Origin: an uncultured virus (IMG/VR IMGVR_UViG_3300037488_003510)
Lineage: Duplodnaviria > Heunggongvirae > Uroviricota > Caudoviricetes
Length of the DNA: 64,000 nt
Virus record (IMG/VR): IMGVR_UViG_3300037488_003510
Reading direction: 5' to 3' (one strand)
Part shown: positions 24,385 through 57,026 of the stretch, piece by piece
How positions within the stretch are numbered: position 1 is the first letter of the stretch
How the letters are laid out: every line of letters starts with the position of its first letter
Translations under genes and position numbers: made by a program
The notes under the pieces: generated by a model
The model's database searches: none
What the model was told of the DNA's origin: nothing
The model's input: the letters and a program-made list of their open reading frames with translations, nothing else

Positions 24385-24756
24385 TCAGTCCTCCTGGCCT
24401 TCCGCCGACACCAGGCTAGCGCCGACGGTTACCGAATTGGTGTCATTGTTGGAAAAGACGATCTTAATTGGCTTTTCTGGCGTGACATCCACTTCCATCG
24501 TCAGCCCAAAGCGAAAAAAGTCTAGTTGTACTGGTTGTTGACCTGGAACAAGGTTGATGTTGTCCCAATAGAGACCTTCAATCTGAACATTCGTGTTTCT
24601 GGGACTCATGTAGAGACGAGCGGTCTTCATAGGGACATCGGGAACGAGCACGAGCTGAGCGCATTCCCCTGGGGCGACCTCTATCGACTCAAGGACGATC
24701 TTGATACTCTCGTTGGTATACTTCCCTTCGGAGTCTATGTCATTGGGAATGGTCAT
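24385..24756 (-). CDS. Small beta-sandwich protein, possible distant capsid-family paralog
   Basis: EVAPGE...P.VP...RL...IKIVFSN...VGASLV strand pattern. Confidence 0.5.
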   Translation of the reverse strand: MTIPNDIDSEGKYTNESIKIVLESIEVAPGECAQLVLVPDVPMKTARLYMSPRNTNVQIEGLYWDNINLVPGQQPVQLDFFRFGLTMEVDVTPEKPIKIVFSNNDTNSVTVGASLVSAEGQED

Positions 24757-30506: not shown

Positions 30507-31583
30507 TTAGACCGTTCGCCGTCCTGGTTGAGCACCTGGCAGGTACAGGGAGATTCCCGCCTTGCCGATGACCTTATCAACTGCCTCCTTGGCACGGAAG
30601 AAGTCTTTTGTGGTTGGTTTCTTTCCGCCAGCCGCTTTGATTGCCTGCTTGACAACGGTTGCCCTGTAGGTGTCGTGGGGGATGGAAGCGCCAATGAAGT
30701 CGCCCTTGATGAAGTTCCAGTGGCGATTGTAGCCCATGGAGCCGGTACGGCGCCGGAGAGCAGCACGTTCGCATTGACCACCTTCGGCCGCCAAGGCTCG
30801 CTCTTCCTCGCCGACGAAGACGTCGATGGTGGGCTGCGGGAGGGGGCCAGTGGGGCTCGGGGTGGGGGTGTTGGTGTAGTAGTATTCGTACTCAGGATCG
30901 TAGGGCAGCGGAGGATACTGAGAAGTTGAAGGTGAAAACGCTGCGGGCGATCCGTATGGGTTGCTGGAGGAAAGTGCTGGGGGTGCTCCATAGGGAGTAG
31001 TGGAAGGAATCACGGGAGGAGCCGTCGAGGGAGCAACCTGAGTGCCAAGTTTTCGCTGTAGACGTTGCAGCTTAGCAGCAGCTTGTTGATCACCAGCATT
31101 GGCCTGAGTTTGCAAGGTGCTCATTCGCTGTTGAACCTTTTGCAATCTTGCCGTAGCCCGAGTATCGCCGGCAGCGGCACGCGACTGCAAGCGTTGAAGT
31201 CCTGGTTGGTGGGGACGACGACGGCGGCCACCGAAGGCACCGAGGGAGGAGCCAGCAATCGAAGGAGGAGTTGGCAAGGAAGCTTTGTACTTCAAGGCCG
31301 AGGCGAGCACTCGCTTGGCGTTGTCGTTTCCTTTCAATGACAGACGAGCAACATGACCAGCGTATGCCTTGTTGAAGGTGATCATGCGAGCGACATCATT
31401 GATTTGATCTTGCGTCTTGAGCCCAGCGATTTCCTTTTCGAAATCCTCGCGCTCCGCTTCCCGAGATCCAGGCGTAGATTCGAAAAGCCGGCTGACGCCG
31501 GACGAACTAGATTCGTTGCCAGCACAAGCGGGAGTGCGAGACCAATTTCGAGTAGTTTCTCCAAGAATCAGATCGAATGACAT
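30507..31583 (-). CDS. Putative virion protein with MSFDLILG tag
   Basis: AGGAG SD before internal Met; shares FVG..ERA.A..GG.CERAALRRR with upstream gene. Confidence 0.75.
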   Translation of the reverse strand: MSFDLILGETTRNWSRTPACAGNESSSSGVSRLFESTPGSREAEREDFEKEIAGLKTQDQINDVARMITFNKAYAGHVARLSLKGNDNAKRVLASALKYKASLPTPPSIAGSSLGAFGGRRRRPHQPGLQRLQSRAAAGDTRATARLQKVQQRMSTLQTQANAGDQQAAAKLQRLQRKLGTQVAPSTAPPVIPSTTPYGAPPALSSSNPYGSPAAFSPSTSQYPPLPYDPEYEYYYTNTPTPSPTGPLPQPTIDVFVGEEERALAAEGGQCERAALRRRTGSMGYNRHWNFIKGDFIGASIPHDTYRATVVKQAIKAAGGKKPTTKDFFRAKEAVDKVIGKAGISLYLPGAQPGRRTV

Positions 31584-31593
31584 TGCATTTCTC

Positions 31594-32379
31594 CTAGTTT
31601 CGAAGCCCAGAACGACGACGAAGGGCAGCACGTTCGCAGGCGCCGCCATCTTCGGCCACAGCACGCTCATCGTCGCCGACGAAGGCTCCGCTGGTGATGA
31701 TTTCAGTCAGTCCATCGTCACCACTGGTGATGATTTCAGTCAACTTGTTGTCGCCGCTGCTGATGATCTCAGTCAGCCGGTCGTTGCCGACAAAGGAGCC
31801 GCTTGAAGCAGAAGGTGGTTCAGTGCCAACGACCTTCCGGTAGATCTTAACACCCGGCGATGGCGATTCCGTCACAAAGAACACACGGCGCCCCTTGTTA
31901 GCCATTTTTACTTTTCCATTAGCAAGCCCCCAATCAAGAAACTCTTTTTCGGGCTTTTTCAAAGACGGCAACAGCGTCTTTAGGGACTTTTCGTCGAGTA
32001 TGATTGGTAAAGGAGCTTTCCAGTAGATACTTCGAAGTGTTTCAAGGTGAACTTCTGTTGAAGAAAACTCTCCCTTCAACAATGTGGGAGTTCCCCTTTT
32101 TCCCTTGCCAAGCATCTGATAAGCCATGGCAATGGCCTTCTTGTTGCCTTTCGCCGCCTCGGCGAGAACCTTGGTTTCCATCTTCTTCCACTTCACCTGA
32201 GCTGTCTTGTCCCCAGCATCAGCCTTTGCCTTGATTCGCATCAGCTTTTTCACCTTGGCCTTTTCAATCGCAGTGAAGAGTGGCGCAGCAGCGGCCTTGA
32301 AAGCCTGGACCACAGCAGAGCGCTCAGCTCCACGCGACCAATCTAGGGATGTTTTTCCGAGCAACAAATCGTATGACAT
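31594..32379 (-). CDS. Putative virion protein with MSYDLLLG tag
   Basis: AGGAG SD; 3 copies of LTEII[ST]SG. Confidence 0.75.
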   Translation of the reverse strand: MSYDLLLGKTSLDWSRGAERSAVVQAFKAAAAPLFTAIEKAKVKKLMRIKAKADAGDKTAQVKWKKMETKVLAEAAKGNKKAIAMAYQMLGKGKRGTPTLLKGEFSSTEVHLETLRSIYWKAPLPIILDEKSLKTLLPSLKKPEKEFLDWGLANGKVKMANKGRRVFFVTESPSPGVKIYRKVVGTEPPSASSGSFVGNDRLTEIISSGDNKLTEIITSGDDGLTEIITSGAFVGDDERAVAEDGGACERAALRRRSGLRN

Positions 32380-32404
32380 TGGTATCTCCTGGCGGTTACG
32401 GCTT

Positions 32405-33028
32405 CTAGAAAATTCCATTGGTACGAGCAAAGCTCGTAGTGGTTGACTTGAACTTCTTTCGAATGTCCGGACTCTTCACCCAACTCTCAACACCAGCTTC
32501 ACCGGCCATGTGGCCGACACCGAGTAGACCAGAGAGTGAAGCCTTGACGCCATCAATGTCCGATCCGACGAACGAACCGACCTTAGATGCCATCCTCTTC
32601 ATCGAGCGTTTGAACGCCTCGTATTGAGCCGGAGTGCTTTCGAGAAACTTCTCGGTGGTCAGTGGGGCCTTCCATTCGCCAACCCACACGCCAGTTTCGC
32701 CGCCAATGGTGGCTTTTCGTGGGGCTTCCATGAACCCGATGTCGGCAAGGCGGCGAGCATCGAGTCCGAAGGTGCCGAGGCGACAACGAGGCGTCTGTAG
32801 GTTCTTGGGGGCAACAGCCATGATGGTGACAAAGCGCTCCCAGGCGAGAGATGGGACACCGAGGGGGGTCATCTTGCTGGGGGGGAGCATGGAGAGCCCC
32901 TTGCGAGAGCGGCCCAGAACGGCGCCGCCGAGGAACGAGAAGATCCCAACGGGAAGAAGAACCAAGGGGCTGATTGGCTTCACGACAATTCTCCTACACG
33001 AACACGTTTCTCGGTAGACCGAGACCAA
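32405..33028 (-). CDS. Membrane-anchored lysozyme-like protein
   Basis: N-terminal TM; LGTFGL..RRLADIG...FL.S..AQ...SGLLGVGHMAG. Confidence 0.5.
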   Translation of the reverse strand: MVSVYRETCSCRRIVVKPISPLVLLPVGIFSFLGGAVLGRSRKGLSMLPPSKMTPLGVPSLAWERFVTIMAVAPKNLQTPRCRLGTFGLDARRLADIGFMEAPRKATIGGETGVWVGEWKAPLTTEKFLESTPAQYEAFKRSMKRMASKVGSFVGSDIDGVKASLSGLLGVGHMAGEAGVESWVKSPDIRKKFKSTTTSFARTNGIF

Positions 33029-44407: not shown

Positions 44408-45382
44408 CTACTTGTGTTTTGCGTATCCCAGCAGTCGTCGAGCCACTGCCTTCTCACTCTTGGGGATGAATCTCTTCTCCTCGCGCGACCAACCAATTAC
44501 CTTGTCCACGTCGAATTCACCATCGCCGAGCAAGATCGAATTGGTTATATAAGCACCCATCTCAGGGTCATCTGAATTTCCCATGACCTCACTCTTCTTG
44601 GCCATCAAGTCGAGAACTTGTTTGTCCAGCTTGACAGAGACGCCGCCGTTGTAGCCCGAGGGCTTCTCCGGATCTACCACCATGACGTCGGGCGCTTTGG
44701 CGAACTGAAGGATGACTGGGATTGTGCCATCTCGGAGCTTCTCCGCTGTGTTGTTAGCTGAGAATTTCTTCTCTTTGCCCATTCCGAGCACCAAGGATGG
44801 ATCTTCGAGTCGGCCGTCTGGTAGAAACACAAGGGCATGGTAGTGGTAGTTGCCCTGGGGGCCACGGCGCCACTTCGCGAAGGGCTTAGCCCGAATTCCA
44901 CCAGAAACTTTCTTCCAGCCGGCCCAGTCAGATTCGCCAGACACTGGCACAGGACCACCAGGAATTACTGGCTGAGGATAGCGAGGATCGGCACATTCAG
45001 TTTTTGACTTGTTCCAAGGAGCAGGTCGCTCATAGTGGTACGGAAGCTCTCGCAATTCAGCAACTCGATAGCACGCTAAATCTTCGCAATCGCCCCAATG
45101 ACCAGGATAAAGACCTTTACCCATGGTTCCCATGAGAAGTGAGGGAATGTCAGGCCAAATCTCAGTGCCTTTTTCCGTCTCATAGTGGAGACCGGAGCGG
45201 TAGACGCTGGGGTAGTTGTACTGAACGAGACCGCGCTTTTTGAACTCTTCGAATTGTCGAAGGTGAGTCTGATTGACTCGGCAGAGGCCCTCCATGAGCC
45301 ACAACATACGCATCTGCGACCAGACTTGATCCCAGTCACCTCTGAACATCTGGCAGCGGAAAACAATGTTTGGCATTCCCAT
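44408..45382 (-). CDS. Transglutaminase-like Cys protease, candidate maturation protease
   Basis: GDCEDL (Cys), YHALV (His), EDPS (Asp) in triad order. Confidence 0.7.
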   Translation of the reverse strand: MGMPNIVFRCQMFRGDWDQVWSQMRMLWLMEGLCRVNQTHLRQFEEFKKRGLVQYNYPSVYRSGLHYETEKGTEIWPDIPSLLMGTMGKGLYPGHWGDCEDLACYRVAELRELPYHYERPAPWNKSKTECADPRYPQPVIPGGPVPVSGESDWAGWKKVSGGIRAKPFAKWRRGPQGNYHYHALVFLPDGRLEDPSLVLGMGKEKKFSANNTAEKLRDGTIPVILQFAKAPDVMVVDPEKPSGYNGGVSVKLDKQVLDLMAKKSEVMGNSDDPEMGAYITNSILLGDGEFDVDKVIGWSREEKRFIPKSEKAVARRLLGYAKHK

Positions 45383-45616: not shown

Positions 45617-45979
45617 TTACGCAGGAGCGCCAGCAGGCGGTGGGATCACCGTGCGCAAGATCCAGATCGAGAAGTCGCTGTCGATTGCCGTGGTGGCATT
45701 GCAGATCTGAACCAGCTTCGTGGCGTCAGCGTCGTCATTGACGGTCGCGGCGTGAATGACACCATTCAGAGCAACACCCGTGGCCATCTTCGGTTGGATG
45801 AAGATGAGATCACGGACACCGTTCTGGGTCATGTTGGTTTGCAGAGCAACGGAGTAAGTTCCGAGGCTCTGACGAGTGGTGGTAACGCCACTGTTGGTGC
45901 GAGTGGAAGAGCCGTCAGCTCCCACAACCTCGGCATACGCAACCGTGGCAAGTGCGGCGGAATCGAATAGAGCGTTCAT
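45617..45979 (-). CDS. Small beta-rich virion protein
   Basis: Directly downstream of capsid candidate; GGAG SD. Confidence 0.65.
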   Translation of the reverse strand: MNALFDSAALATVAYAEVVGADGSSTRTNSGVTTTRQSLGTYSVALQTNMTQNGVRDLIFIQPKMATGVALNGVIHAATVNDDADATKLVQICNATTAIDSDFSIWILRTVIPPPAGAPA

Positions 45980-46076: not shown

Positions 46077-46676
46077 CTACTCGACAGCCGGGCCGACGAG
46101 ACCACCCTGGAAGTTGCGGGCGGCCGGGTTCTGGTTGGTGACCGAGATCGTCACGAACATCGAGATCTGAGCCGTGTCCATCTTCAAACGGACGCCGAAC
46201 GCATTCTCGGTGAACATAACGGCCGGCAGAGCGCCGGTCGACACCAACTGCGAGTTCTTGCCGACCTTGATGTCGGTGATCAAGAAGTCAACCGCGATGT
46301 TCGAGGGAACGACCAAACGCTCAGGACGGAAGATGACCTGGGGCTGGACGTTGATGTTTGCCGAGCTGTTGCCGGCAACGCTGGTGCTGCCAAGACCGAG
46401 AGCATACTCACGCGAGCTGCGAGGAGAGACCGAGCGCAACAGAGCACCCGATTCCACGCGGCGACGGAGCAGGTCGCGAGCCATAGCAGTCTTCTTGGCG
46501 TTCTTCTTCCGGCGCGCGAGAACCGCGCCCAGAATGTCGTCACCCGACTCATCGCTGTCACCAACGAAAGCGCCGGATTCATCGTCCCCGTCGAGCAGAT
46601 CGCCGAGAATTTCAGTGGTCTCGAAGCCGAGAGAGTCATCGCCATCGAGCAAATCGCCGTACATGTCCTTGACCAT
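46077..46676 (-). CDS. Candidate major capsid protein (acidic leader plus ~110-aa beta domain, single jelly-roll-like)
   Basis: Acidic N-terminus with SLG/ILG/FVG motifs; all-beta C-terminal domain; GC3-rich codons; AAAGGA SD; near head of structural operon. Confidence 0.55.
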   Translation of the reverse strand: MVKDMYGDLLDGDDSLGFETTEILGDLLDGDDESGAFVGDSDESGDDILGAVLARRKKNAKKTAMARDLLRRRVESGALLRSVSPRSSREYALGLGSTSVAGNSSANINVQPQVIFRPERLVVPSNIAVDFLITDIKVGKNSQLVSTGALPAVMFTENAFGVRLKMDTAQISMFVTISVTNQNPAARNFQGGLVGPAVE

Positions 46677-46744: not shown

Positions 46745-47197
46745 TTACTCAGCTCGCACGAGCGAGGAGAGTTCCTTGTCGGCAATGGACGATCCGCCCG
46801 AAACGGGCTTCGAATCGCCGAGCATGCCGGACATGCCCTTGAGGAAGCTGCCGCCCGAGGCCCAACGCTCACCCACGCGGTAACCAGTGGTGGTGAAGAA
46901 GCTCGCGAGAGCGCCATCACCAATGGCATGCAGGTGGTGCGAATACGGCTTCGTGAAGCTGAAAGCTCCAAGGATGTGGAAGGCCGCGCCAGCCAGGAGA
47001 TCGACCGGCAGAATCAAGGTCAATCCGCCCGAAGCCTTGAAGCGCCCTTGCAGGACGCCGAAAGCAAAGGACGACACCGAGACTTCCGCCGCGCGAGTCA
47101 GTTTGAGTCCTTCATCGGCCTTGCGAAGCAGCCCACGGGCTCCTCCACCAATTCCACCGAAGCGGGACATCACGTTATGGGAGTTCAAGTGCAACAT
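46745..47197 (-). CDS. Gly-rich membrane-associated virion protein
   Basis: AAGGAG SD; hydrophobic Gly/Ala segments. Confidence 0.65.
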   Translation of the reverse strand: MLHLNSHNVMSRFGGIGGGARGLLRKADEGLKLTRAAEVSVSSFAFGVLQGRFKASGGLTLILPVDLLAGAAFHILGAFSFTKPYSHHLHAIGDGALASFFTTTGYRVGERWASGGSFLKGMSGMLGDSKPVSGGSSIADKELSSLVRAE

Positions 47198-47388
47198 CGC
47201 TGGTTCTCCTTTTTGGGCTTTTGGCCCTTCTCTGGTTTGTTCGAATCCACGGATTCGAAGTTCTTGTTCAAGCCCACTCGTGGGCCACAACAAAATTTTA
47301 GCGTGTTGAGCACACTTGAACGATTTTTTTCTAGTTGTGGAAAAGCACAGTGAAAAATCGCAAAAACACGGGGTTTTCACATAGCCAC

Positions 47389-47405
47389 ATTCACAGTTCG
47401 TGAAT
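47389..47405. promoter_or_regulatory. Operator-like palindrome 1
   Basis: ATTCAC-AGTTC-GTGAAT. Confidence 0.6.
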
Positions 47406-47471
47406 AGTGAACACACAGTGACGCATCAGTCGGCGAATATTGTATCTTTTAAGAGACACCTTTCTTCCAGC

Positions 47472-47500
47472 TTGCACGATTCATGAATTGTGAATATCCT
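47472..47500 (+). promoter_or_regulatory. sigma70-like promoter containing operator palindrome 2
   Basis: TTGCAC-N17-TATCCT with ATTCATGAATTGTGAAT (47479-47495) in the spacer; ATG 8 nt downstream. Confidence 0.6.
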
Positions 47501-47508
47501 CCGTCATC

Positions 47509-48036
47509 ATGCTGCGTGCCCAAGATGTACTGGTGATCTGCAAGCTGTTCTCGCTGAACGGCGGCGACTGGACATTCAACCGACTGTCCGACGACTTAGG
47601 CATCTCAGCCAGCGAGGTTCACAACTCCGTGGCTCGATGCAAGTCCTCCCAACACATCATCTGCCCAGGAGGCGCTCTCAAGGTGGCACCGAAGAATCTC
47701 TTCGAGCTTCTAGCCTATGCGGTCCCCCGCATCTTCTATGCCGTGAGAGGAGGTCTTGAGATGGGCATGCCCACGGGAGCCCATATGCCCACCATCAAGA
47801 TGAGCTTCAACAGCATAGACAAGACAGTGCCCTTGGTCTGGCCTTGTTCAGATGGGACCGTCCGTGGCGAGAGCCTCTTACCTATCTACTCTTCGGTGCC
47901 GCAGGCGGCGAGCAAGGACACTGTTCTCTATGAACTCCTGTCTCTTGTGGAAATCATCAGAGTTGGAGAATCTAAATCCAAGAAACAAGCAATCGCTTTA
48001 CTTGAAAAGAGGATTCTTGGTAAAACGGGAGAATAA
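47509..48036 (+). CDS. HTH regulator, AbiEi/type IV antitoxin-like
   Basis: LSDDLGISASEVHNSV HTH; GMPT, VWP, RGE.L.PIY.SVP.A, LYELL.LV..IRVG. Confidence 0.7.
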   Translation: MLRAQDVLVICKLFSLNGGDWTFNRLSDDLGISASEVHNSVARCKSSQHIICPGGALKVAPKNLFELLAYAVPRIFYAVRGGLEMGMPTGAHMPTIKMSFNSIDKTVPLVWPCSDGTVRGESLLPIYSSVPQAASKDTVLYELLSLVEIIRVGESKSKKQAIALLEKRILGKTGE

Positions 48037-48037
48037 G

Positions 48038-48496
48038 ATGAATCGGTATCTTCAAAACATATTACCGTTAATGACAGAGATTTCACCTGGAGAGATCAAA
48101 GAGGTCTCAGTTGAATCTACTTCGGTTTTCATCCCAGAGCGCCTAGTTGTTGGTGAGGTTTCTCGCACATTTTCAGAAAAAGCGCTCGGCTGGATTGGTG
48201 TTTTCGTGTGGAACTTTCTATCATTATTCAGTCCCAACGGACATTTCGTTTGGCGATTATCACCACATTTTCCTGTCAATCTCCTTAGATTCAGAGTCGG
48301 GAACACTGATCAGTTTTCACCTATGAACCCCATTCCCACCGAACTTTTCGGTCCTAGTACAATCGGGCTAAATGGCCGCTTTGACGTCTGTCGTCCGGGG
48401 CAAACGCTGACGCTTACAGTGCAAAGCAGCTCCAAGAGATCGCTTGTATTCCGAGCAGTCTTGATAGGACAAGCTGTACCAGATAAGCAACTTTAA
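48038..48496 (+). CDS. Capsid-family paralog 1
   Basis: FIPERLVV...FRVG..DQ...IP.ELF...LTV...FRAVLIG. Confidence 0.7.
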   Translation: MNRYLQNILPLMTEISPGEIKEVSVESTSVFIPERLVVGEVSRTFSEKALGWIGVFVWNFLSLFSPNGHFVWRLSPHFPVNLLRFRVGNTDQFSPMNPIPTELFGPSTIGLNGRFDVCRPGQTLTLTVQSSSKRSLVFRAVLIGQAVPDKQL

Positions 48497-48508
48497 TCAG
48501 AAAGGATC

Positions 48509-48853
48509 ATGTCGCCAATGGCCAATCACGTAAAAGGCTGCAACTGTTCGATGTGTGGACCTGTAAACACCCCGGATAGACTGACCGAGTTTCCCATAGT
48601 CGCTTTGTACATGGCGCTATTTCCACCTGAGCCAATTCCGACAGAACCATCGGATAAATTGCTTGTTCCTCATCGCTCGCCATCTACCGGGTATCTTTCG
48701 GGCGATCCGCAGCTGTTGGCCGAGCTATCAGGGCTGCGGGAGGAGATCGCTAAACTGGCAAAGACTGAAGAAGGGATTCGAGAGCTACTGACTCGCTTCT
48801 TAGACCGCGAGCGACAGTCATCTGTTGCCAAAAACAGAAACTCAGATGAATAA
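48509..48853 (+). CDS. Hypothetical with Cys motif and coiled coil
   Basis: HVKGCNCSMC; SD. Confidence 0.55.
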   Translation: MSPMANHVKGCNCSMCGPVNTPDRLTEFPIVALYMALFPPEPIPTEPSDKLLVPHRSPSTGYLSGDPQLLAELSGLREEIAKLAKTEEGIRELLTRFLDRERQSSVAKNRNSDE

Positions 48854-49262
48854 GATAACCGGGCGAGAATCTGTGATTGGCTTTGACACTGTAACTGTAA
48901 AGCCTGGCAACACAGAAGAAGTGTCAGTCAAAACGTCTCACCCTTTCATACTGGAGCATCTTGTGGCATCGCGGTCAAATGGGAGTGATAAACTGTTTGT
49001 GGCAGATCTAACCAGTAATGGCCATAGCTTAATAACGTCGGGATGCCAGACACCATTCTGCATGTTCGAAGTCGACCAATGGCCAATGATTTTTGGGAAT
49101 GTAGTCACGACGGCAGGCGAGAAGATCGCTCTTAAGGTGGAGAACGTATCAACTGAAACGGTTGATGTTCGAGCAGCAGTCTGTGGGATGATGTTCAATT
49201 CAGAACAAGACGCAAACGAATGGCTGAGACTTCGACAAGTAAATAGAAAGGGATTACGATGA
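48846..49262 (+). CDS. Capsid-family paralog 2
   Basis: IGFDTVTV.PG...PF..EHLV...DL...G.SLI...MF...LKVEN...RAAVCG. Confidence 0.65.
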   Translation: MNKITGRESVIGFDTVTVKPGNTEEVSVKTSHPFILEHLVASRSNGSDKLFVADLTSNGHSLITSGCQTPFCMFEVDQWPMIFGNVVTTAGEKIALKVENVSTETVDVRAAVCGMMFNSEQDANEWLRLRQVNRKGLR

Positions 49263-49840
49263 GCGAGAACACACTTCAAAAAATCTTGGTTGGCATTGCG
49301 CCCGACAAACTCCTCGAAGGGGCATTAGACGTCATCGGAACAGATCGTCTGTACGAGGAAATCCTCCGACGATTTTGCGAGAAGGACAAAATCGACTTGC
49401 CCGCGCTGCCCGATGGATCTTCGATGGTCGCCTTGGGACTAGGCAGCACCTGTGTTGCCGGCAACAGCTCGGCGAACATTAACGTGCAGTCGTTTCGTGA
49501 CTTCATTCCAGATCGCCTGGTGATTCCAACCTACTGCGCGGAACACTTCCTAGTCACGGATATCAAGAATGGGGGAAACACGATTTTTTTTGACAGCACC
49601 GGATGTGCTCCGGCGATGTTTTCCAATGAGCGAGTTTACAACTTCAAGTTCGCTCCCGAAGTGGCTCGCTATTTGGGTTACGTGAGAGTCAGTGTGACCA
49701 ATCAGTCGCTGACAGCTAGAAACTTCCAAGGGGTCATTGTTGGTCATACTCCACCCATGGGCGCAAATGCCTTAGCAGCCGCTAAGAACTGTTTGGAGAC
49801 AGTGGCTGCGCTCATGATCAGCGGGGATACTCATGGATGA
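49259..49840 (+). CDS. Capsid-family paralog 3
   Basis: ALGLGSTCVAGNSSANINVQ vs ALGLGSTSVAGNSSANINVQ; SVTNQ...ARNFQG. Confidence 0.85.
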   Translation: MSENTLQKILVGIAPDKLLEGALDVIGTDRLYEEILRRFCEKDKIDLPALPDGSSMVALGLGSTCVAGNSSANINVQSFRDFIPDRLVIPTYCAEHFLVTDIKNGGNTIFFDSTGCAPAMFSNERVYNFKFAPEVARYLGYVRVSVTNQSLTARNFQGVIVGHTPPMGANALAAAKNCLETVAALMISGDTHG

Positions 49841-49874
49841 AAGACAACATGTGACAACAAAGGGGGAGAGCGCG

Positions 49875-50447
49875 ATGAGCGAGAACGCTCTACATCAGAT
49901 CTTGGCTGGAGGCGATCTTGACAAGTTGCTCGAAGCAGCATTGAGCCACATCCCAGAAGATCGCCTGAACAATGCTGTCTTCCACCGATTTTGCGAAAAG
50001 GGGTACGGGGCCAAAGCCAACTTGCGCAAACTGTCGAATGGGGAGATGGAGTGTGTTTTAGGACTCGGCAGCACAATTGTTCCCGGAGAATCGAGGTGCA
50101 ATATCAATGTGCAGCCAGGCCAGACATTCATTCTAAATCGCTTGGTGATCCCCTCTTACTGCGCCGATGATTTTCTGGTTACGAATATCATGGTCGGGAA
50201 GAATTCGATATTCCCTGATAACGAGAGAGGTGTTCCAGCTGCCCTTTTCAGTGAGAGAGAATACAACTTCAAACTCATACAAGTGGAAGCTCCTTCCCTG
50301 CTTTTCATTAGCGTGATGATTGTTAATCAATCACCTTATGACAAGGCTTTTCATGGTGCTCTTATTGGACACACTCCACCAGCTGGCGACATTTCCTCGG
50401 AGCAGGCAACTCCAGTTCTCCTCCCCTGCGGCGACACTTACGGATGA
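49875..50447 (+). CDS. Capsid-family paralog 4
   Basis: LGLGST...NINVQP...RLVIPS...VGKNS...PAALFSE; N-terminal domain shared with paralog 3. Confidence 0.85.
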   Translation: MSENALHQILAGGDLDKLLEAALSHIPEDRLNNAVFHRFCEKGYGAKANLRKLSNGEMECVLGLGSTIVPGESRCNINVQPGQTFILNRLVIPSYCADDFLVTNIMVGKNSIFPDNERGVPAALFSEREYNFKLIQVEAPSLLFISVMIVNQSPYDKAFHGALIGHTPPAGDISSEQATPVLLPCGDTYG

Positions 50448-50459
50448 CAAGCCAGATCA

Positions 50460-51548
50460 CTAGAACTTCAAGCAGAAGGTAGTGGGCTCGTTCTTGTCGT
50501 GAGGCCATATCGCCGCATGACAGTGCGGGCTCACGCAGCCGCCGTCTCCTGTCCATCCCCCTAAGTTGACGATCTTCCAGGGGTGGTTGTCGAGCCCCGA
50601 GACGTCTTTGTAGCCCCCGTAGTGGTCGTGACCGATGAAGAGGTAGCTCGGCATGGAGGCGTCACCCAAGGGCGCCGGGGTGGTCGGATCGCTCATCAAG
50701 GTGTTCACGTACCATTCCAGGTGGCTTCCTAGTCCATTTTGCTGCTTCTCAGAGTGTGAAACCACGGCCGGGTGAAACACGTCGGCTGGATAGCTCCAAC
50801 ACTTGGCAAAATCACTTCCGCTTCGAATGAGTGACCATTGTGTTTGACGCTCATGACTGTTGTAATCGTACAAAGCTGCCATGAGAGGCTCACTCTTCTT
50901 GTGCAAATCAAGAATGGTGTTCGGATCATTCAGATTGATGTCTGGCCTACCAATACCCGTTAAAACCTTCAGCCCAAAATACTTGGCTGCACTGTCTTGG
51001 CCGAGAATCAAATCATCCAATAGGTGTCCATGATGGAAGGTGATGTAAGGCCAGTAGCGTCCAATGGTGTAATTAGGATACGCAGCTCGAATGCGCCCAA
51101 ACTTGAAACGAGCTGGCCCGATCAAGTCTCTCAAGAAGTGATCTGAACCAGGGAGCATTTCCCCATTGTACTGTAGAAGAACATCCCCCTTGACGTTGTT
51201 GGTGAAGGGATTCAGGCTGCAATGGGTGGCTATCTTCTTCCACATGGAGTAGTCATGGTTGCCCCAGAGGATGATTAAGCTTTCAATTTTGATCTTACCT
51301 GTCAACTTCTCGAAGAACGACCTAGACACCTCGGAAACGAATGGCGAGAAGCCTTCCGGATCGAAACTGCCCGCATCCTTGGGTACGCACCCCTCGAAAC
51401 AGTCACCTGTCAATATCAGGCGATCTGTGCTGCCGTTGCATAGGCTCTCCAGCTGGTTCACGACATGCTCTTGGGCCATGGGGTCGTTGAGGACGCACAA
51501 GTCGTATCCTAGGTGTAGGTCGGAAACCGCGATGAAGTGTGCTGGCAT
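50460..51548 (-). CDS. Calcineurin-like metallophosphoesterase
   Basis: SDLHLG, GD, GNHD, HGH, GHDH, NLGGW. Confidence 0.85.
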   Translation of the reverse strand: MPAHFIAVSDLHLGYDLCVLNDPMAQEHVVNQLESLCNGSTDRLILTGDCFEGCVPKDAGSFDPEGFSPFVSEVSRSFFEKLTGKIKIESLIILWGNHDYSMWKKIATHCSLNPFTNNVKGDVLLQYNGEMLPGSDHFLRDLIGPARFKFGRIRAAYPNYTIGRYWPYITFHHGHLLDDLILGQDSAAKYFGLKVLTGIGRPDINLNDPNTILDLHKKSEPLMAALYDYNSHERQTQWSLIRSGSDFAKCWSYPADVFHPAVVSHSEKQQNGLGSHLEWYVNTLMSDPTTPAPLGDASMPSYLFIGHDHYGGYKDVSGLDNHPWKIVNLGGWTGDGGCVSPHCHAAIWPHDKNEPTTFCLKF

Positions 51549-52781: not shown

Positions 52782-52814
52782 CTTTTTCTACAGTTTTCGA
52801 GTGTTGGTTGATAG

Positions 52815-52897
52815 TGTCTCCCGAGGGAGTCGAACCCTCACGATCTTACGATCACCAGATTTTGAGTCTGACGTGACTGCCATTTCACCAGGGAGAC
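52815..52897 (-). tRNA. tRNA-Leu(CAA)
   Basis: Cloverleaf, loop CTCAAAA, long variable arm. Confidence 0.9.
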
Positions 52898-52923
52898 ATG
52901 AAGGATGTGTGGTGCGGAAAGGT

Positions 52924-53036
52924 AAGGTGAATCCGGCTCTCCACCGAATGAGGCCGGATAGTACCACGTCTCGCTCGCCGTTTTTCGAGGTACTGGATGG
53001 TTCCCCCGCGAGCTTCGGTGCCGACTGGTTCACCTT
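52924..53036 (-). ncRNA. Unknown structured RNA (possible double pseudoknot)
   Basis: 8-bp closing stem, two hairpins, two loop-pairing segments. Confidence 0.6.
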
Positions 53037-53037
53037 G

Positions 53038-53121
53038 TGCCGAAGACAGGAGTCGAACCTGCACGCTCTTTCAAGCAACCGATTTTAAGACGGCCGAGTC
53101 TACCATTCCATCCACTTCGGC
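53038..53121 (-). tRNA. tRNA-Leu(TAA)
   Basis: Loop CTTAAAA. Confidence 0.9.
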
Positions 53122-53127
53122 AAGTTG

Positions 53128-53210
53128 TGCGCCCAGGAGGAGTTGAACCTCCACGACCTTTCGGCCACTAGGTTCTGAGCCTAGCGTGACTGCCATTCCA
53201 CCATTGACGC
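53128..53210 (-). tRNA. tRNA-Leu(CAG)
   Basis: Loop CTCAGAA. Confidence 0.9.
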
Positions 53211-53224
53211 AAGTACAAACTGAG

Positions 53225-53307
53225 TGGTGGGCGTGGGAATCGAACCCACACGACCCGAGGGCCACAGGTTCCTAAGACCTGCGCGGCTGCCATTACGCCA
53301 GCCCACC
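53225..53307 (-). tRNA. tRNA-Leu(TAG)
   Basis: Loop CTTAGGA. Confidence 0.9.
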
Positions 53308-53326
53308 AAGAGACTGGTTATCATTG

Positions 53327-53409
53327 TGCGAATGGGGGGAGTCGAACCCCCACGAGGTTTCCCTCACCAGCACCTCAAGCTGGCGTGACTGCCATTCCAC
53401 CACACTCGC
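53327..53409 (-). tRNA. tRNA-Leu(GAG)
   Basis: Loop TTGAGGT. Confidence 0.9.
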
Positions 53410-53421
53410 ATGAAACTCTTG

Positions 53422-53493
53422 AGCCGACAGGGGAACTCGAATCCCCCTTTCCTGCTTACCAAGCAGGCGAGTCGCCATCTACTCATTGCCGGC
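53422..53493 (-). tRNA. tRNA-Thr(GGT)
   Basis: Loop TTGGTAA. Confidence 0.8.
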
Positions 53494-53507
53494 AAAATCT
53501 ATCAAAG

Positions 53508-53580
53508 AGCCCTCGGCGAGAATCGAACTCGCAGATCTTCGCTTAGGAGGCGAAGCCCGATTCCAGGTTCGGACAAGGGT
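53508..53580 (-). tRNA. tRNA-Arg(CCT)
   Basis: Loop CTCCTAA; A1-C72 mismatch. Confidence 0.8.
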
Positions 53581-53584
53581 AAAT

Positions 53585-53660
53585 TGGTGGACCCGCCCGG
53601 ATTTGAACCGGGAATGAACAGTTTATGAGACAGTTGCTTTAACCGTTAAGCCACAGGTCC
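53585..53660 (-). tRNA. tRNA-CAT, probably Ile2
   Basis: Loop CTCATAA, GGACCTG acceptor, encoded CCA. Confidence 0.75.
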
Positions 53661-53666
53661 ATTGAG

Positions 53667-53738
53667 CGCTCGCGAAGGGACTCGAACCCTCCTCAGTCGG
53701 TAGACAGCCGACCAGCCTCACCCGATGCTTACGCGAGC
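53667..53738 (-). tRNA. tRNA-Asp(GTC)
   Basis: Loop CTGTCTA, G73. Confidence 0.85.
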
Positions 53739-53766
53739 ATGAAAATCGAACGAGCCAAACAAATTG

Positions 53767-53837
53767 TCGGAGTGGAGGGAATTGAACCCCCATCAATGGT
53801 GTGTAGGACCATGGCCCTGCCGTTAGACGACACTCCG
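53767..53837 (-). tRNA. tRNA-Val(TAC), atypical
   Basis: Loop CCTACAC (C33), CGG acceptor, A73. Confidence 0.7.
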
Positions 53838-53838
53838 T

Positions 53839-53912
53839 TGGTACCAGCGGCGGGGAATGATCCCACTCCACTCGCTTATGAGGCGAACGTCCCATCCACT
53901 TAGGTCACTGGC
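53839..53912 (-). tRNA. tRNA-Met(CAT)
   Basis: Loop CTCATAA, encoded CCA, degenerate T-loop. Confidence 0.7.
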
Positions 53913-53920
53913 GTACTTTG

Positions 53921-53995
53921 CGTCCATGGAGGGACTCGAACCCCCACTATTCTCGCTTCGTAGGCGAGGACCTTATCCAATTAGGCAACATGGAC
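53921..53995 (-). tRNA. tRNA-Arg(ACG)
   Basis: Loop CTACGAA. Confidence 0.9.
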
Positions 53996-54002
53996 AAAAA
54001 AT

Positions 54003-54079
54003 TGGTACCCACGGAGGGACTCGAACTCCCAACATCTTGGTTCGAAGCCAAGTGCTCTGATCCATTGAGCTACGCGGGC
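54003..54079 (-). tRNA. tRNA-Arg(TCG)
   Basis: Loop CTTCGAA, encoded CCA. Confidence 0.9.
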
Positions 54080-54086
54080 ATTATTG

Positions 54087-54160
54087 TGCTCCCAGGGGGG
54101 CTCGAACCCCGCATTCCTGGCTTGAAGGGCCAGTGTCTTGACCAATTGGACGATGGGAGC
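54087..54160 (-). tRNA. tRNA-Glu(TTC)
   Basis: Loop CCTTCAA (C33). Confidence 0.85.
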
Positions 54161-54164
54161 GAAC

Positions 54165-54241
54165 TGGTGATCTCGGGGGGAGTTGAACCCCGCATTCCGG
54201 CAGTGAGAGTGCCGTGTCCTACCAGATTAGACGACGAGATC
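54165..54241 (-). tRNA. tRNA-Glu(CTC)
   Basis: Loop CTCTCAC, encoded CCA. Confidence 0.9.
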
Positions 54242-54460
54242 GTAGAACCAAGGTGATGTGAAGTGAGAGGTTGGAGTTGGCGGAGGTCGAACACTCGTTA
54301 CGGCCTCAGCAATGAAGTCTGGTCCCTTGTCTCGATGGTAGAACCGACTTTTCATGAACTCTATGAAGGTCCAGTAGCAAGCACCGCAGTAGACAACATC
54401 ATCGGAAAAGATGTGCCCACTTTGGGGATGGTATGGCCCCCCGCAAGCAAAGCATCGCAT
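54227..54460 (-). CDS. Small CxxC...CxxC protein inside the tRNA array
   Basis: MRCFACGGPYH...YCGAC; AGGGGG SD; fills the only large gap in the array. Confidence 0.65.
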   Translation of the reverse strand: MRCFACGGPYHPQSGHIFSDDVVYCGACYWTFIEFMKSRFYHRDKGPDFIAEAVTSVRPPPTPTSHFTSPWFYDLVV

Positions 54461-54477
54461 GAAAACCCCCTAGTTAG

Positions 54478-54551
54478 TGCTCCCGGCAGGAGTTGAACCT
54501 GCAATCTCGGGCTTAGAAGGCCCTTGCTCTGATCCATTGAGCCACGAGAGC
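54478..54551 (-). tRNA. tRNA-Arg(TCT)
   Basis: Loop CTTCTAA. Confidence 0.9.
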
Positions 54552-54559
54552 GTGATGAT

Positions 54560-54681
54560 TGGAGACCGTCGAAAGGTTGCCCTTTCCGAAAGGTATTCTA
54601 GCTAGTTTCCCGCGCGAGGTTCAAGCATGGCTTGTGAGCCGTCGATATCCTTCTAGTAGCCATTCTCTCGCCACAACGGTC
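54560..54681 (-). ncRNA. tRNA-like RNA with CCA end and expanded anticodon domain
   Basis: 7-bp acceptor GACCGTT/GACGGTC followed by T-CCA. Confidence 0.6.
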
Positions 54682-54686
54682 ATAAG

Positions 54687-54767
54687 CTCTCGGGGCAGGA
54701 CTCGAACCTGCAATGTTTTTCAACGCACGGTTAACAGCCGTGTGCCCTGCCATTAGGCGACCCGAGA
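54687..54767 (-). tRNA. tRNA-Asn(GTT) with enlarged variable loop
   Basis: Loop CTGTTAA, G73. Confidence 0.85.
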
Positions 54768-54771
54768 ATAG

Positions 54772-54843
54772 AGCTGGAGATCGGAGTCGGACCGACAACC
54801 TATGGTTTACAAAACCATTGCACTACCGTTGTGCTACTCCAGC
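54772..54843 (-). tRNA. tRNA-Thr(TGT)
   Basis: Loop TTTGTAA. Confidence 0.9.
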
Positions 54844-54844
54844 G

Positions 54845-54940
54845 TAGCGGGGGCCGGACTCGAACCGGCGAAACCGAGGTTATGAGCCTCGTGGGTTGCG
54901 ATCTGGCATTTCTGTCAGATCTCCTTTTCCCTACCCCGCA
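54845..54940 (-). tRNA. Initiator-like tRNA-fMet(CAT) with hairpin inserted in D-loop
   Basis: TGCGGGG/CCCCGCT with 1:72 mismatch; CGAGG-CTCATAA-CCTCG. Confidence 0.8.
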
Positions 54941-54941
54941 G

Positions 54942-55014
54942 AGCCCCTGTGGAGAATCGAACTCCATTCTTCGGCTTACGAGGCCGACGCATCACCAAAG
55001 CATGCTTCAGGGGC
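54942..55014 (-). tRNA. tRNA-Thr(CGT)
   Basis: Loop CTCGTAA. Confidence 0.85.
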
Positions 55015-55020
55015 AAGTTG

Positions 55021-55091
55021 AGCACCGTACTGGACTTGAACCAGCGTAGCCAGCTTGGAAGGCTGGAGCCCAACCCCTAGGCCAACGGTGC
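55021..55091 (-). tRNA. tRNA-Gly(TCC)
   Basis: Loop CTTCCAA, U73. Confidence 0.85.
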
Positions 55092-55101
55092 AAAAACGTA
55101 G

Positions 55102-55174
55102 AGCGAAGAACGGGACTCGAACCCGCATGGTCCACCTTGGCAAGGTGGTGCATAGCCAATTCTGCCATCTCCGC
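55102..55174 (-). tRNA. tRNA-Gly(GCC)
   Basis: Loop TTGCCAA, U73. Confidence 0.9.
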
Positions 55175-55320
55175 AAACCTGACAACAGAGCACGGGCTAA
55201 GACGGGTGATCGTCCCATGTTGCCCATGGTGAGCCAGGGAGAACCACAGCGACTTCTTCGAGGTGTTTTCTCTCCTGATCAGGTGAGAGGACTTTTCCCG
55301 AATACTGACTGTGATTTTTG

Positions 55321-55391
55321 AGGTTCCGACAGGACTTGAACCTGTGTAGCGGGTTTTGCAGACCCGAGCCTAGCCACTCGACCACGGAACC
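55321..55391 (-). tRNA. tRNA-Cys(GCA)
   Basis: Loop CTGCAAA, U73. Confidence 0.9.
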
Positions 55392-55397
55392 ATACTG

Positions 55398-55481
55398 AGG
55401 AGAGCAGCGTACTCGAAACGCAAGCTCGAAAGCTCCATCGGTTTAGCAAACCGCGACGACGCCCTAGTCGCTTTACTCTCC
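55398..55481 (-). tRNA. tRNA-Ser(GCT)
   Basis: Loop TTGCTAA, long variable arm. Confidence 0.85.
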
Positions 55482-55487
55482 AAAATG

Positions 55488-55571
55488 AGGAAGGCGAGAG
55501 AATCGAACTCCATGCCCGAGGGCACACACCGCTTTCGAAACGGGTGCAGCTCCATAGCTGCGTCACCTTCC
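55488..55571 (-). tRNA. tRNA-Ser(CGA)
   Basis: Loop TTCGAAA. Confidence 0.85.
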
Positions 55572-55576
55572 AACGG

Positions 55577-55660
55577 AGGAGAGCGAAGGGCACGATCCTT
55601 ATGCCCGAGGGCACGCACAGCTTTCCAGACTGGCCAGGCGCCATCGCCTGTTCACTCTCC
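55577..55660 (-). tRNA. tRNA-Ser(GGA)
   Basis: Loop CTGGAAA. Confidence 0.8.
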
Positions 55661-55665
55661 AATAG

Positions 55666-55749
55666 AGGAAGACGGAGGTGACGATCCCCAAGCCCAAGGG
55701 CTCCAGCCGCTTTCAAGGCGGTGCTCGGTCCACACCAAGTTCATCTTCC
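55666..55749 (-). tRNA. tRNA-Ser(TGA)
   Basis: Loop CTTGAAA. Confidence 0.8.
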
Positions 55750-55752
55750 GTC

Positions 55753-55826
55753 TGGCGGGTCGTGAGGGAATCGAACCCCCATAAGCAGATTTGGAGTTTG
55801 CTGTCCTACCGTTAGACGAACGACCC
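55753..55826 (-). tRNA. tRNA-Trp(CCA)
   Basis: Loop CTCCAAA, G73, encoded CCA. Confidence 0.9.
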
Positions 55827-55838
55827 AATAATTCGTTG

Positions 55839-55909
55839 TGGAGCCACTGAGAATTGAACTCAGATTAACAGACTGCCAGCCTGTTGTCCTCCCGTTGGAC
55901 GATGGCCCC
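55839..55909 (-). tRNA. tRNA-Ala(GGC)
   Basis: Loop CTGGCAG, G3:U70. Confidence 0.9.
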
Positions 55910-55914
55910 ATAGT

Positions 55915-56017
55915 GCCGGGTATCCTCCCGTTGGACGACTGACTTGCCACTAGCTGTATGCGAACGCATCTTGGTTATATGGCAAACCAGACCAGAATCG
56001 AACTGGCATCCCCCAGC
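55915..56017 (-). ncRNA. Circularly permuted tRNA-like RNA (YrlA/Y-RNA-like topology)
   Basis: T-arm and acceptor 3' strand precede acceptor 5' strand and D-arm. Confidence 0.7.
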
Positions 56018-56021
56018 GTCG

Positions 56022-56094
56022 TGGATCTGAAGGGACTCGAACCCTTTGCCTCCGGCTTGCAAAACCAGCGCTCTCCCAGTTGAGCTACAGACCC
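56022..56094 (-). tRNA. tRNA-Ala(TGC)
   Basis: Loop TTTGCAA, G3:U70. Confidence 0.9.
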
Positions 56095-56106
56095 GAATAC
56101 TTGTTG

Positions 56107-56179
56107 TCGGGGTGACAGGAATCGAACCTGCTGCCTCATGCTCCCAAAGCACGCGCTCTACCATGTGAGCTACACCCCG
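56107..56179 (-). tRNA. tRNA-Pro(TGG)
   Basis: Loop TTTGGGA. Confidence 0.9.
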
Positions 56180-56183
56180 GTAG

Positions 56184-56254
56184 GGTGACCAGTGGGGATC
56201 GAACCCACGATAGCTGGTTCACAGCCAGCCGCCTTACCACTTGGCTATGGCCAC
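56184..56254 (-). tRNA. tRNA-His(GTG)
   Basis: Loop CTGTGAA, C73; G-1 not encoded. Confidence 0.9.
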
Positions 56255-56256
56255 AG

Positions 56257-56328
56257 TCCTCTCGTTGGGAATTGAACCCACTTCGGTCGCCTATCATGCG
56301 ACTGCACTAACCAATGTGCTACGAGAGG
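56257..56328 (-). tRNA. tRNA-Ile(GAT)
   Basis: Loop ATGATAG. Confidence 0.8.
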
Positions 56329-56403
56329 TTGAGCAGTGTGCAGACGGTCTGTTGAACGTCCGGTTGACTTAAGAACCTGCACTGTTCATCAACAACTTTT
56401 TTG

Positions 56404-56476
56404 TCAGCGTGGCGGGAGTCGAACCCGCAGATTCTTGCTCCCGAAGCAAGCGGCTTACCATCAAGCCATCACGCTG
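56404..56476 (-). tRNA. tRNA-Pro(CGG)
   Basis: Loop TTCGGGA. Confidence 0.85.
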
Positions 56477-56480
56477 ATTG

Positions 56481-56551
56481 TTCCGGTGGAGCGAATCGAA
56501 CACTCGTAGATGGCTCCAAAGGCCACCGTCCTGCCATTGGACGACACCGGA
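56481..56551 (-). tRNA. tRNA-Gln(TTG)
   Basis: Loop CTTTGGA, U1-A72. Confidence 0.85.
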
Positions 56552-56555
56552 ATAG

Positions 56556-56629
56556 TTCCCGAGAGAGGAGTCGAACCTCTAACCAACGGAGTCAGAGTCC
56601 GCTACGCTTCCAGTTTGCGCCACTCGGGA
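56556..56629 (-). tRNA. tRNA-Gln(CTG)
   Basis: Loop CTCTGAC, U1-A72. Confidence 0.85.
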
Positions 56630-56639
56630 ATACTATCAG

Positions 56640-56712
56640 TGCCCCTCTCCAGAGTTGAACTGGACCCTCCGCGTTTTCAGCGCAGCGCTCGTCCCACGAG
56701 AGCTTAAGGGGC
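56640..56712 (-). tRNA. tRNA-Phe(GAA)
   Basis: Loop CTGAAAA. Confidence 0.85.
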
Positions 56713-56754
56713 ATAAAGACGGGACTGGTGATCCCGCCGCATGTAAACTATGAA

Positions 56755-56786
56755 GTTGTCAAAGAGTCCTCGGAAGCAAACCGAGG
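56755..56786 (-). promoter_or_regulatory. boxB/boxA-like antitermination signal
   Basis: Hairpin CCTCGG-N7-CCGAGG followed by CTCTTTGACAAC. Confidence 0.65.
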
Positions 56787-56792
56787 CTTGAG

Positions 56793-56864
56793 TGGGATGC
56801 CTGAGAATCGAACTCAGATTGACCGATTAAGAGCCGGCGGTTCTAACCGTTGAACTAGCAACCC
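56793..56864 (-). tRNA. tRNA-Lys(CTT)
   Basis: Loop CTCTTAA. Confidence 0.9.
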
Positions 56865-56868
56865 GTTG

Positions 56869-56941
56869 TGCTTGCGGAGGGACTCGAACCCTCAATGAGA
56901 GGCTTAAAAGGCCACTGCCCTAACCATTGGGCTACGCAAGC
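56869..56941 (-). tRNA. tRNA-Lys(TTT)
   Basis: Loop CTTTTAA. Confidence 0.9.
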
Positions 56942-56947
56942 GGAGTG

Positions 56948-57026
56948 TGGGTGAGGGGGGAATCGAACCCTCCTTGCCGAGGCCACTGGTTTACAGCCAG
57001 CTCCCACTCCATGTGAGATCTCACCC
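56948..57026 (-). tRNA. tRNA-Tyr(GTA)
   Basis: Loop CTGTAAA, variable arm. Confidence 0.85.

Follow-up and report, generated by a model that had tools for sequence, protein, structure and literature searches.

Why would a virus encode, next to its own capsid gene and on the opposite strand, several further copies of the capsid fold behind a regulator of their own? This question is raised by a stretch of 64,000 nucleotides from an uncultured virus (IMG/VR record IMGVR_UViG_3300037488_003510), referred to here as the window, which is part of a larger virus-like contig (128,897 bases on record). Most window genes are encoded on the minus strand, and opposite them runs a series of six close-packed or overlapping open reading frames (ORFs; 47509-50447): a helix-turn-helix (HTH) gene encoding a probable winged-helix regulator, a paralog of the candidate major capsid protein (p1), an ORF of 114 amino acids (aa), and three further paralogs (p2, p3, and p4; Table 1). 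We found this layout to be real, lineage-wide, and previously undescribed, and we tentatively interpret the paralogs as non-virion capsid mimics used in conflict, a reading to which we assign a probability of about 45%.

Capsid paralogs behind a divergent regulator

The original prediction, made from the sequence of the window, had placed the HTH gene and four homologs of the capsid candidate's beta domain opposite that candidate, and both the positions and the homology held. A profile built without any window protein gave 90.7 bits for p3, 86.7 for p4, 57.5 for p1, and 43.8 for p2, compared to 2.3-5.6 bits for the best listed among 200 shuffles of each and scores below 0 for reversed copies; as these values far exceed the controls, p1 and p2, the weak two, are also real. 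Identity to the window capsid domain was 47% (p3), 42% (p4), 21% (p1), and 16% (p2). The p3 protein keeps 19 of the 20 residues of a capsid segment that the prediction had singled out, with 50 of 60 bases identical; capsid genes of other genomes share 50-51 of these bases, so that recent gene conversion is not supported as the source of the match. As had been described, the acidic leader with its Gly motifs is missing from all four paralogs (the motif occurs zero times in p1-p3 and once in p4, near the C-terminus), and p3 and p4 carry a common, putatively helical N-terminal segment (57% identity over 42 residues). Convergent on the operon lies a metallophosphoesterase gene (50460-51548, minus strand), which is co-oriented behind the regulator in three related loci (L014, L015, and L021).

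Synteny in related genomes, one of the checks proposed with the prediction, was compared over 10 kb on each side, and paralog absence refers to these stretches. The regulator is divergent from the genes for a conserved 150-aa protein and the capsid protein in all 45 loci, counting duplicates and the window, whose upstream DNA is long enough for comparison. Non-redundant loci in which the sequence extends at least 2.5 kb past the regulator number 28; of these, 17, including the window, carry paralogs within 4.5 kb behind it (1-6 domains each) and 11 carry none. These loci hold 41 paralog domains in the 122 kb behind the regulator versus 5 in 341 kb elsewhere, a roughly 23-fold enrichment. A best paralog match for p3 was obtained in 9 of 27 loci (median identity 30%), and for p2 in none of the 27. 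When 51 paralog domains were compared with 52 close capsid sequences (L085 and L086 being kept in a distant capsid set), their median identity was 28% to the capsid domain and 20% among themselves. The paralogs are without one-to-one orthologs, and it is the arrangement that is the lineage trait. Their forms include bare domains, tandem double domains, helical-looking linkers, and N-terminal segments with hydrophobic helices (6 of 150 representatives) or Cys-pair motifs (9 of 150). As judged by reading translations, which is how gene contents behind the regulator were assigned in relatives, this region also holds unrelated genes, toxin-antitoxin-like pairs, and a transposase-like ORF.

The ratio of nonsynonymous to synonymous substitution rates (dN/dS) was 0.04-0.53 (mostly 0.2-0.5) in the nine estimable paralog pairs, and since this shows purifying selection, the paralogs are maintained proteins. 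Between p3 and p4, dN is 0.44 and dS 1.50, with synonymous sites saturated. In a tree restricted to the less diverged paralog rows (16 of 53), p3 forms a sister pair with p4 (support 100/99), and this pair clusters with the close capsid proteins at 88/90; the tree suggests that paralogs arose several times from the capsid gene. The fold core and the D135-Q143 hairpin are retained in 50-75% of paralogs at most positions, and residues conserved in near and far capsids alike (R89, E90, E157, T168, Q170, and C-terminal residues) are kept in only 7-30%. We hypothesize from this pattern that one assembly interface may have been kept and one lost. Codon adaptation, scored against a reference built from capsid genes, is 0.12-0.22 in the paralogs versus 0.47 in the capsid gene, and the paralogs are lower in 19 of 19 loci.

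Capsid candidate and structural operon

The leader of the capsid candidate carries four hydrophobic-hydrophobic-Gly motifs and a net charge of -16 over the first 50 residues, and in the structural model this acidic leader is disordered, followed by an extended basic helix and a beta domain predicted with confidence (predicted local distance difference test, pLDDT, >90 over 112 residues). A fold search (VIA, 48,161 solved chains) returned at ranks 1, 2, and 4 the capsid proteins of HHIV-2 (6h82; Z 8.5, root-mean-square deviation [rmsd] 6.4, 112 aligned), HCIV-1 (6h9c; Z 8.0, rmsd 2.9, 107 aligned), and SPV1 (6oj0; Z 7.5, rmsd 3.0, 110 aligned), and P23-77 VP17 (3zmn) also matched (Z 6.6). Because a cellular GOLD domain ranks third (Z 7.7), the fold match is only suggestive and not decisive. 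Foldseek found nothing for the candidate against PDB at E 0.001, and its three matches in BFVD are all without name or characterization. Neither the candidate nor the paralogs had a match in Pfam, PHROGs, or NCBIfam, and the capsid family was unmatched in 50,697 GenBank phage records. The capsid domain has a mean identity of 92% across the 52 close sequences, the protein is steady across the loci (78.5% identity), and its gene has the highest codon adaptation among the 30 window genes scored, against a reference built from the capsid genes themselves.

Genome content was read from a 194-kb relative (88% complete), which encodes a polymerase B of protein-primed type and a 599-aa ATPase matching HerA (Pfam DUF87, E 9.5e-6, and HerA chains in PDB). 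This ATPase has a further match, to a PHROG bearing the label terminase large subunit (E 2.3e-13), and a Terminase_6N search was blank. No portal or HK97 match was found among the 187 ORFs of this relative (149 scanned with Pfam, the remaining 38 with PHROGs only), and no tyrosine integrase was found in it. Taken together, the fold matches and the relative's genome content, including its HerA-like ATPase, indicate that the candidate very probably serves a large tailless virus as its major capsid protein, in line with the original prediction, which treated it as a capsid candidate. The 194-kb relative also encodes a major-vault-protein-like gene (L090, 838-3543, plus strand), a Ro60/TROVE protein, and RtcB (L091, 13857-15536, plus strand; L089, 8805-9947, plus strand), and the window carries 34 clustered tRNA genes (52814-57026, minus strand) followed by an HNH endonuclease gene.

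The virus group comprises 1,933 clusters at 50% identity, with relatives' contigs reaching sizes of 194-282 kb. These contigs were binned as Polyangiaceae, Myxococcales, Myxococcota, Gemmatimonadetes, and Alphaproteobacteria, labels that mis-binning may explain; in the one 7.1-Mb bin searched, matches were confined to a virus-like contig. A literature search of titles and abstract starts, with most subscription papers and supplements outside its reach, returned nothing on this virus group or on capsid-paralog decoys or mimics, and the accessible part of Yutin 2018 (PMC5894146) covers only small double jelly-roll viruses.

Several features of the structural operon accompany the capsid gene (Table 1). 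Three related loci have tandem near-identical capsid genes with unequal leader lengths in this operon (L018, 9896-11840; L050, 9962-11869; L057, 1162-3107). The conserved 324-aa protein has no family match, and we take it, from its resemblance to transglutaminase-like proteases, to be a candidate maturation protease. The hydrophobic-hydrophobic-Gly motif found four times in the capsid leader occurs 11 times in a 1588-aa protein, and several ORFs nearby begin with a similar Tyr/Phe-Asp-Leu-x-Leu-Gly segment (25427-30193, 30507-32430, and 46077-46676; all minus strand); this recurrence suggests a site for a virion maturation protease or a sorting signal. The 120-aa gene is present in one to several tandem copies behind the capsid gene in relatives, and its candidacy as a jelly-roll penton was rejected on its fibre-like fold and the lack of profile similarity. 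In the hairpins before the first structural gene, 9 of 13 pairs are doubly changed in at least one of 16 aligned sequences, with compensatory and G-U changes, making the element a candidate translational operator or packaging signal. A scan for sigma-70 promoters and terminators gave counts no better than chance.

Table 1 Positions of the features discussed, in window coordinates
Feature	Position	Strand	Remarks
Fifth, remote paralog outside the operon	24385..24756	-	18.0 bits vs 7.3 for shuffles
Conserved 324-aa protein	44408-45382	-	Cys/His/Asp motifs; 21/27 loci, 69% identity
120-aa protein after capsid gene	45617-45979	-	Tailspike/fibre C-terminal-like fold (Z 8.7, rmsd 3.6, 104 aligned)
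Candidate major capsid protein, 199 aa	46077..46676	-	Acidic leader with Gly motifs; basic helix at 48-75; single jelly-roll domain at 88-199
Conserved 150-aa hydrophobic protein	46745..47197	-	First structural-operon gene; 27/27 non-redundant loci, median 64% identity
Two hairpins before first structural gene	47232..47286	-	4-base C/T-G-N-G loops; likely RNA leader element
Distal palindrome, candidate operator 2	47388..47411		Second site
Proximal palindrome, candidate operator 1	47471..47495		Directly before HTH start codon
Probable winged-helix regulator (HTH gene)	47509..48036	+	Orphan homolog of plasmid genes that lie in front of AbiEii/AbiGii-type nucleotidyltransferase toxin genes
Paralog p1, 152 aa	48038..48496	+	Jelly-roll domain with hydrophobic insertion of ~30 residues
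114-aa ORF between p1 and p2	48509..48853	+	Not a paralog; no homolog among the loci compared
Paralog p2, 138 aa	48846..49262	+	Bare domain, short C-terminal extension
Paralog p3, 193 aa	49259..49840	+	Nearest the capsid protein (47%); N-terminal segment in common with p4
Paralog p4, 190-204 aa	49833..50447 (start 49875 or 49833)	+	Sister of p3

A putative orphan antitoxin-type regulator and its palindromes

The regulator matches the AsnC profile (E 0.0075) and, more weakly, MarR-type regulators over residues 18-78, and it has no AbiEi family match in Pfam or NCBIfam. It also matches 108 plasmid records at <60% identity; in the four plasmid loci opened, the next gene is annotated AbiEii/AbiGii in two and encodes a similar-looking protein in the other two. 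Behind the viral regulator there is no AbiEii-type toxin gene, and the next gene is a capsid paralog. Elsewhere in the window, a nucleotidyltransferase-like ORF (10544-11131, minus strand) has no BLAST similarity to the plasmid partner toxin, and in one relative a nucleotidyltransferase-like ORF with a weak AbiEii match lies far from the regulator (L094, 17711-18355, plus strand).

The core palindrome TTCRYGAA is present in 36 of 41 viral intergenic regions and occurs twice in 21 of the 41, at a background of 0.18 per kb. The paired palindromes are spaced by 83-86 bp, about eight helical turns, in 19 of these 21 regions (about 84 bp in the window), and the core also stands before two of the four plasmid homologs, with a variant before a third. 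In one relative, a transposase-like insertion of about 1.2 kb parts the regulator from its palindromes (L038, 7894-9416). The separate regulation proposed in the original prediction is consistent with this operon having its own regulator and conserved palindromes, and the opposite strand and these palindromes would imply a separate transcript for the paralogs.

AbiEi antitoxins are described as repressing their own operon through inverted repeats in the promoter (PMC7319586, accessible part) and as binding the toxin directly to neutralize it (10.64898/2026.01.19.700257, accessible part). The viral regulator resembles such antitoxins in its probable DNA-binding domain at the N-terminus and the inverted repeats at its own promoter, and its plasmid homologs adjoin AbiEii/AbiGii genes; it differs in being fixed back to back with a structural operon in all 45 loci. 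With no family match and no toxin gene behind it, the regulator is not a formal member of the AbiEi family. The simplest reading of the sequence is an orphan antitoxin domesticated as an auto-repressor, which may also neutralize AbiEii-type host toxins or act on the structural promoter.

Mimics, subunits, and known systems

Mechanistically, we propose a large tailless virus with a shell made of one single jelly-roll protein that hardly varies. The gene for this protein would have spawned copies that then lost the acidic, cleavable-looking leader and the basic arm and gathered behind the domesticated antitoxin-type regulator. This regulator, given its plasmid homology and the sites at its promoter, would bind the two palindromes and repress itself, and it may limit when, or how strongly, the copies are made, so that the virus does not disturb its own assembly. 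The copies, as far as the comparison of relatives goes, have retained the fold together with some of the conserved surface and are optional, turning over between relatives. Such mimics would act in one of two ways, neither of which is strongly favoured: they may enter growing lattices via the retained surface and stall the assembly of co- or superinfecting relatives, or they may bind host sensors of the capsid fold and leave these untriggered; we slightly prefer assembly interference to the sensor decoy. The account as a whole, i.e., a birth-and-death family of capsid copies under an antitoxin auto-repressor in a widespread lineage, with mimics that poison rivals or blind sensors, is put forward a little more guardedly than the mimic reading itself.

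Several observations weigh against this interpretation. Anything that poisoned the 92% identical capsid of relatives would hit the virus itself as well. Paralogs are present outside the operon, one in the window (at 24385) and two more in the 194-kb relative. The rates give no indication of positive selection: pairwise dN/dS is <1 and synonymous distances resemble those of the regulator, on which grounds neither positive selection nor a hypermutation system was accepted, the regulator's own dN/dS over the same pairs (0.09-0.69) is close to that of the paralogs, and the contrast appears to lie mainly in a frozen capsid gene and not in accelerated paralogs, which seem to evolve at an ordinary accessory-gene rate. 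None of 200 bootstrap trees united all paralogs, and a single origin was not rejected (approximately unbiased test, p-AU 0.164). Other structural-strand genes are equally low in codon adaptation (0.15-0.26), so the low values of the paralogs are compatible with low-copy virion proteins. Peptidase-, lipoprotein-, and glycosyltransferase-like ORFs also stand behind the regulator in relatives and could be late genes. By analogy, the capsid variants of PBCV-1 (26-43% identity), described as true virion subunits in the accessible part of PMC9617893, point in the same direction.

The strongest competing explanation, which we consider possible and rank second, is that the paralogs are optional low-copy capsid subunits, either variant capsomers or pieces adjoining the vertices, through which variable domains would be displayed on the shell or beneath it, with the regulator setting a low supply. 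Their fold core is kept at 16-47% identity, overlapping the range among PBCV-1 variants (25.6-42.8%; PMC9617893, accessible part), genes behind the regulator in relatives resemble lysis and glycosylation genes by their translations, and no conserved protein could be picked out as a penton candidate, the 120-aa gene folding like tailspike or fibre C-terminal domains. Complex modelling, another check suggested with the prediction, bears on this question as well: four capsid domains with p3 scored 0.48 versus 0.00 for the best of three controls, with contact agreement of at least 59% and partner pLDDT of at least 69 (69-73 for p3, the only paralog folded). In calibration, this range held both passing mismatches of 215 and only 18 of 157 solved complexes, the job is unlike the calibration set, and a homolog can pass by likeness. 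The model thus weakly suggests that the capsid protein binds p3, an association that would fit subunit and poison alike. Essential, stoichiometric subunits are unlikely, because the paralogs are absent behind the regulator in 11 of the 28 loci, vary in number, and share no ortholog. The same absence behind the regulator, the lack of an orthologous slot, the opposite strand, and the missing leader motif also count against optional subunits, and we prefer mimics because of the opposite strand, the paralogs' own regulator, leader loss, turnover, and cytoplasmic-looking fusions.

Two further explanations are improbable. The paralogs might be assembly helpers or size modulators, acting as transient chaperones on capsid subunits or membrane while the virus's own particles form and then leaving them, which would suit the partly retained surface, the few hydrophobic N-terminal helices, and a second palindrome about 100 bp from the structural leader, through which one regulator may couple both directions; however, a helper of an invariant capsid should be conserved and always present, and the paralogs are neither. 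Finally, duplicates recruited as generic beta-sandwich modules with unrelated binding roles, or by-products undergoing slow decay in a variable region beside the capsid gene, would be consistent with relaxed dN/dS (up to about 0.5), very long paralog branches, the unrelated genes, toxin-antitoxin-like pairs, and transposase-like ORF taken in behind the regulator, and the 16-21% identity of p1 and p2 to the capsid domain, but they are difficult to reconcile with open frames, purifying selection, saturated synonymous sites between p3 and p4, the persistence of polar motifs specific to the capsid, and the enrichment at one site.

The new elements are the presence/absence counts, the concentration of paralogs behind a single regulator, the substitution rates, and the origin and sites of the regulator. 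Paralogs that act as mimics would give a prokaryotic virus interference or counter-defence proteins derived from its capsid, a counterpart of Gag-derived restriction factors, and they might serve as bait in searches for jelly-roll capsid sensors of the host; paralogs that are minor subunits would point to modular, rapidly changing shells in a large virus group. Under either reading, an invariant capsid protein with natural variants offers a test set for the surfaces that drive single jelly-roll assembly.

Among known systems, CapRel is reportedly a host sensor of capsid proteins of tailed phages, and to our knowledge no sensor of a jelly-roll capsid fold has been described. With Avs7 and Dsr1, hosts sense conserved capsid folds of tailed phages according to the accessible part of a preprint (10.64898/2026.01.04.697583). 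Sensed capsid folds of either kind would give a decoy a target; the difference is that these are tailed-phage capsids, and the word "jelly" is absent from the main text of the Avs preprint.

The haloarchaeal viruses HHIV-2 and HCIV-1 have a fixed pair of capsid proteins. The present candidate resembles the vertical single jelly-roll capsids of HHIV-2, HCIV-1, SPV1, and P23-77 (VP17) in its eight-stranded jelly-roll and perhaps, through a relative's genome, in a HerA/FtsK-like ATPase, whereas sequence identity to these capsids is 7-12%, the Z scores are middling and near those of cellular beta-sandwiches, and one invariant capsid gene with a changing paralog set replaces the fixed pair. MCPv1-5 of PBCV-1 are likewise several paralogs of the same fold (26-43% identity) in one large virus genome, but in the accessible part of that report (PMC9617893) they are double jelly-roll proteins with defined virion positions, whereas the paralogs described here are known from their genes, vary in number and identity, and stand behind a separate regulator. 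Closest to the mimic reading is the Ty1 restriction factor p22/p18, presented in the accessible part of PMC8458377 as a leaderless fragment of Ty1's own capsid protein that has a transcript to itself and is proposed to block assembly; the derivation of the viral paralogs from their own capsid gene follows from sequence comparison and the tree. Ty1 p22 matches one half of Gag exactly and is encoded by the same gene, whereas the viral paralogs are separate, diverged, multi-copy jelly-roll genes.

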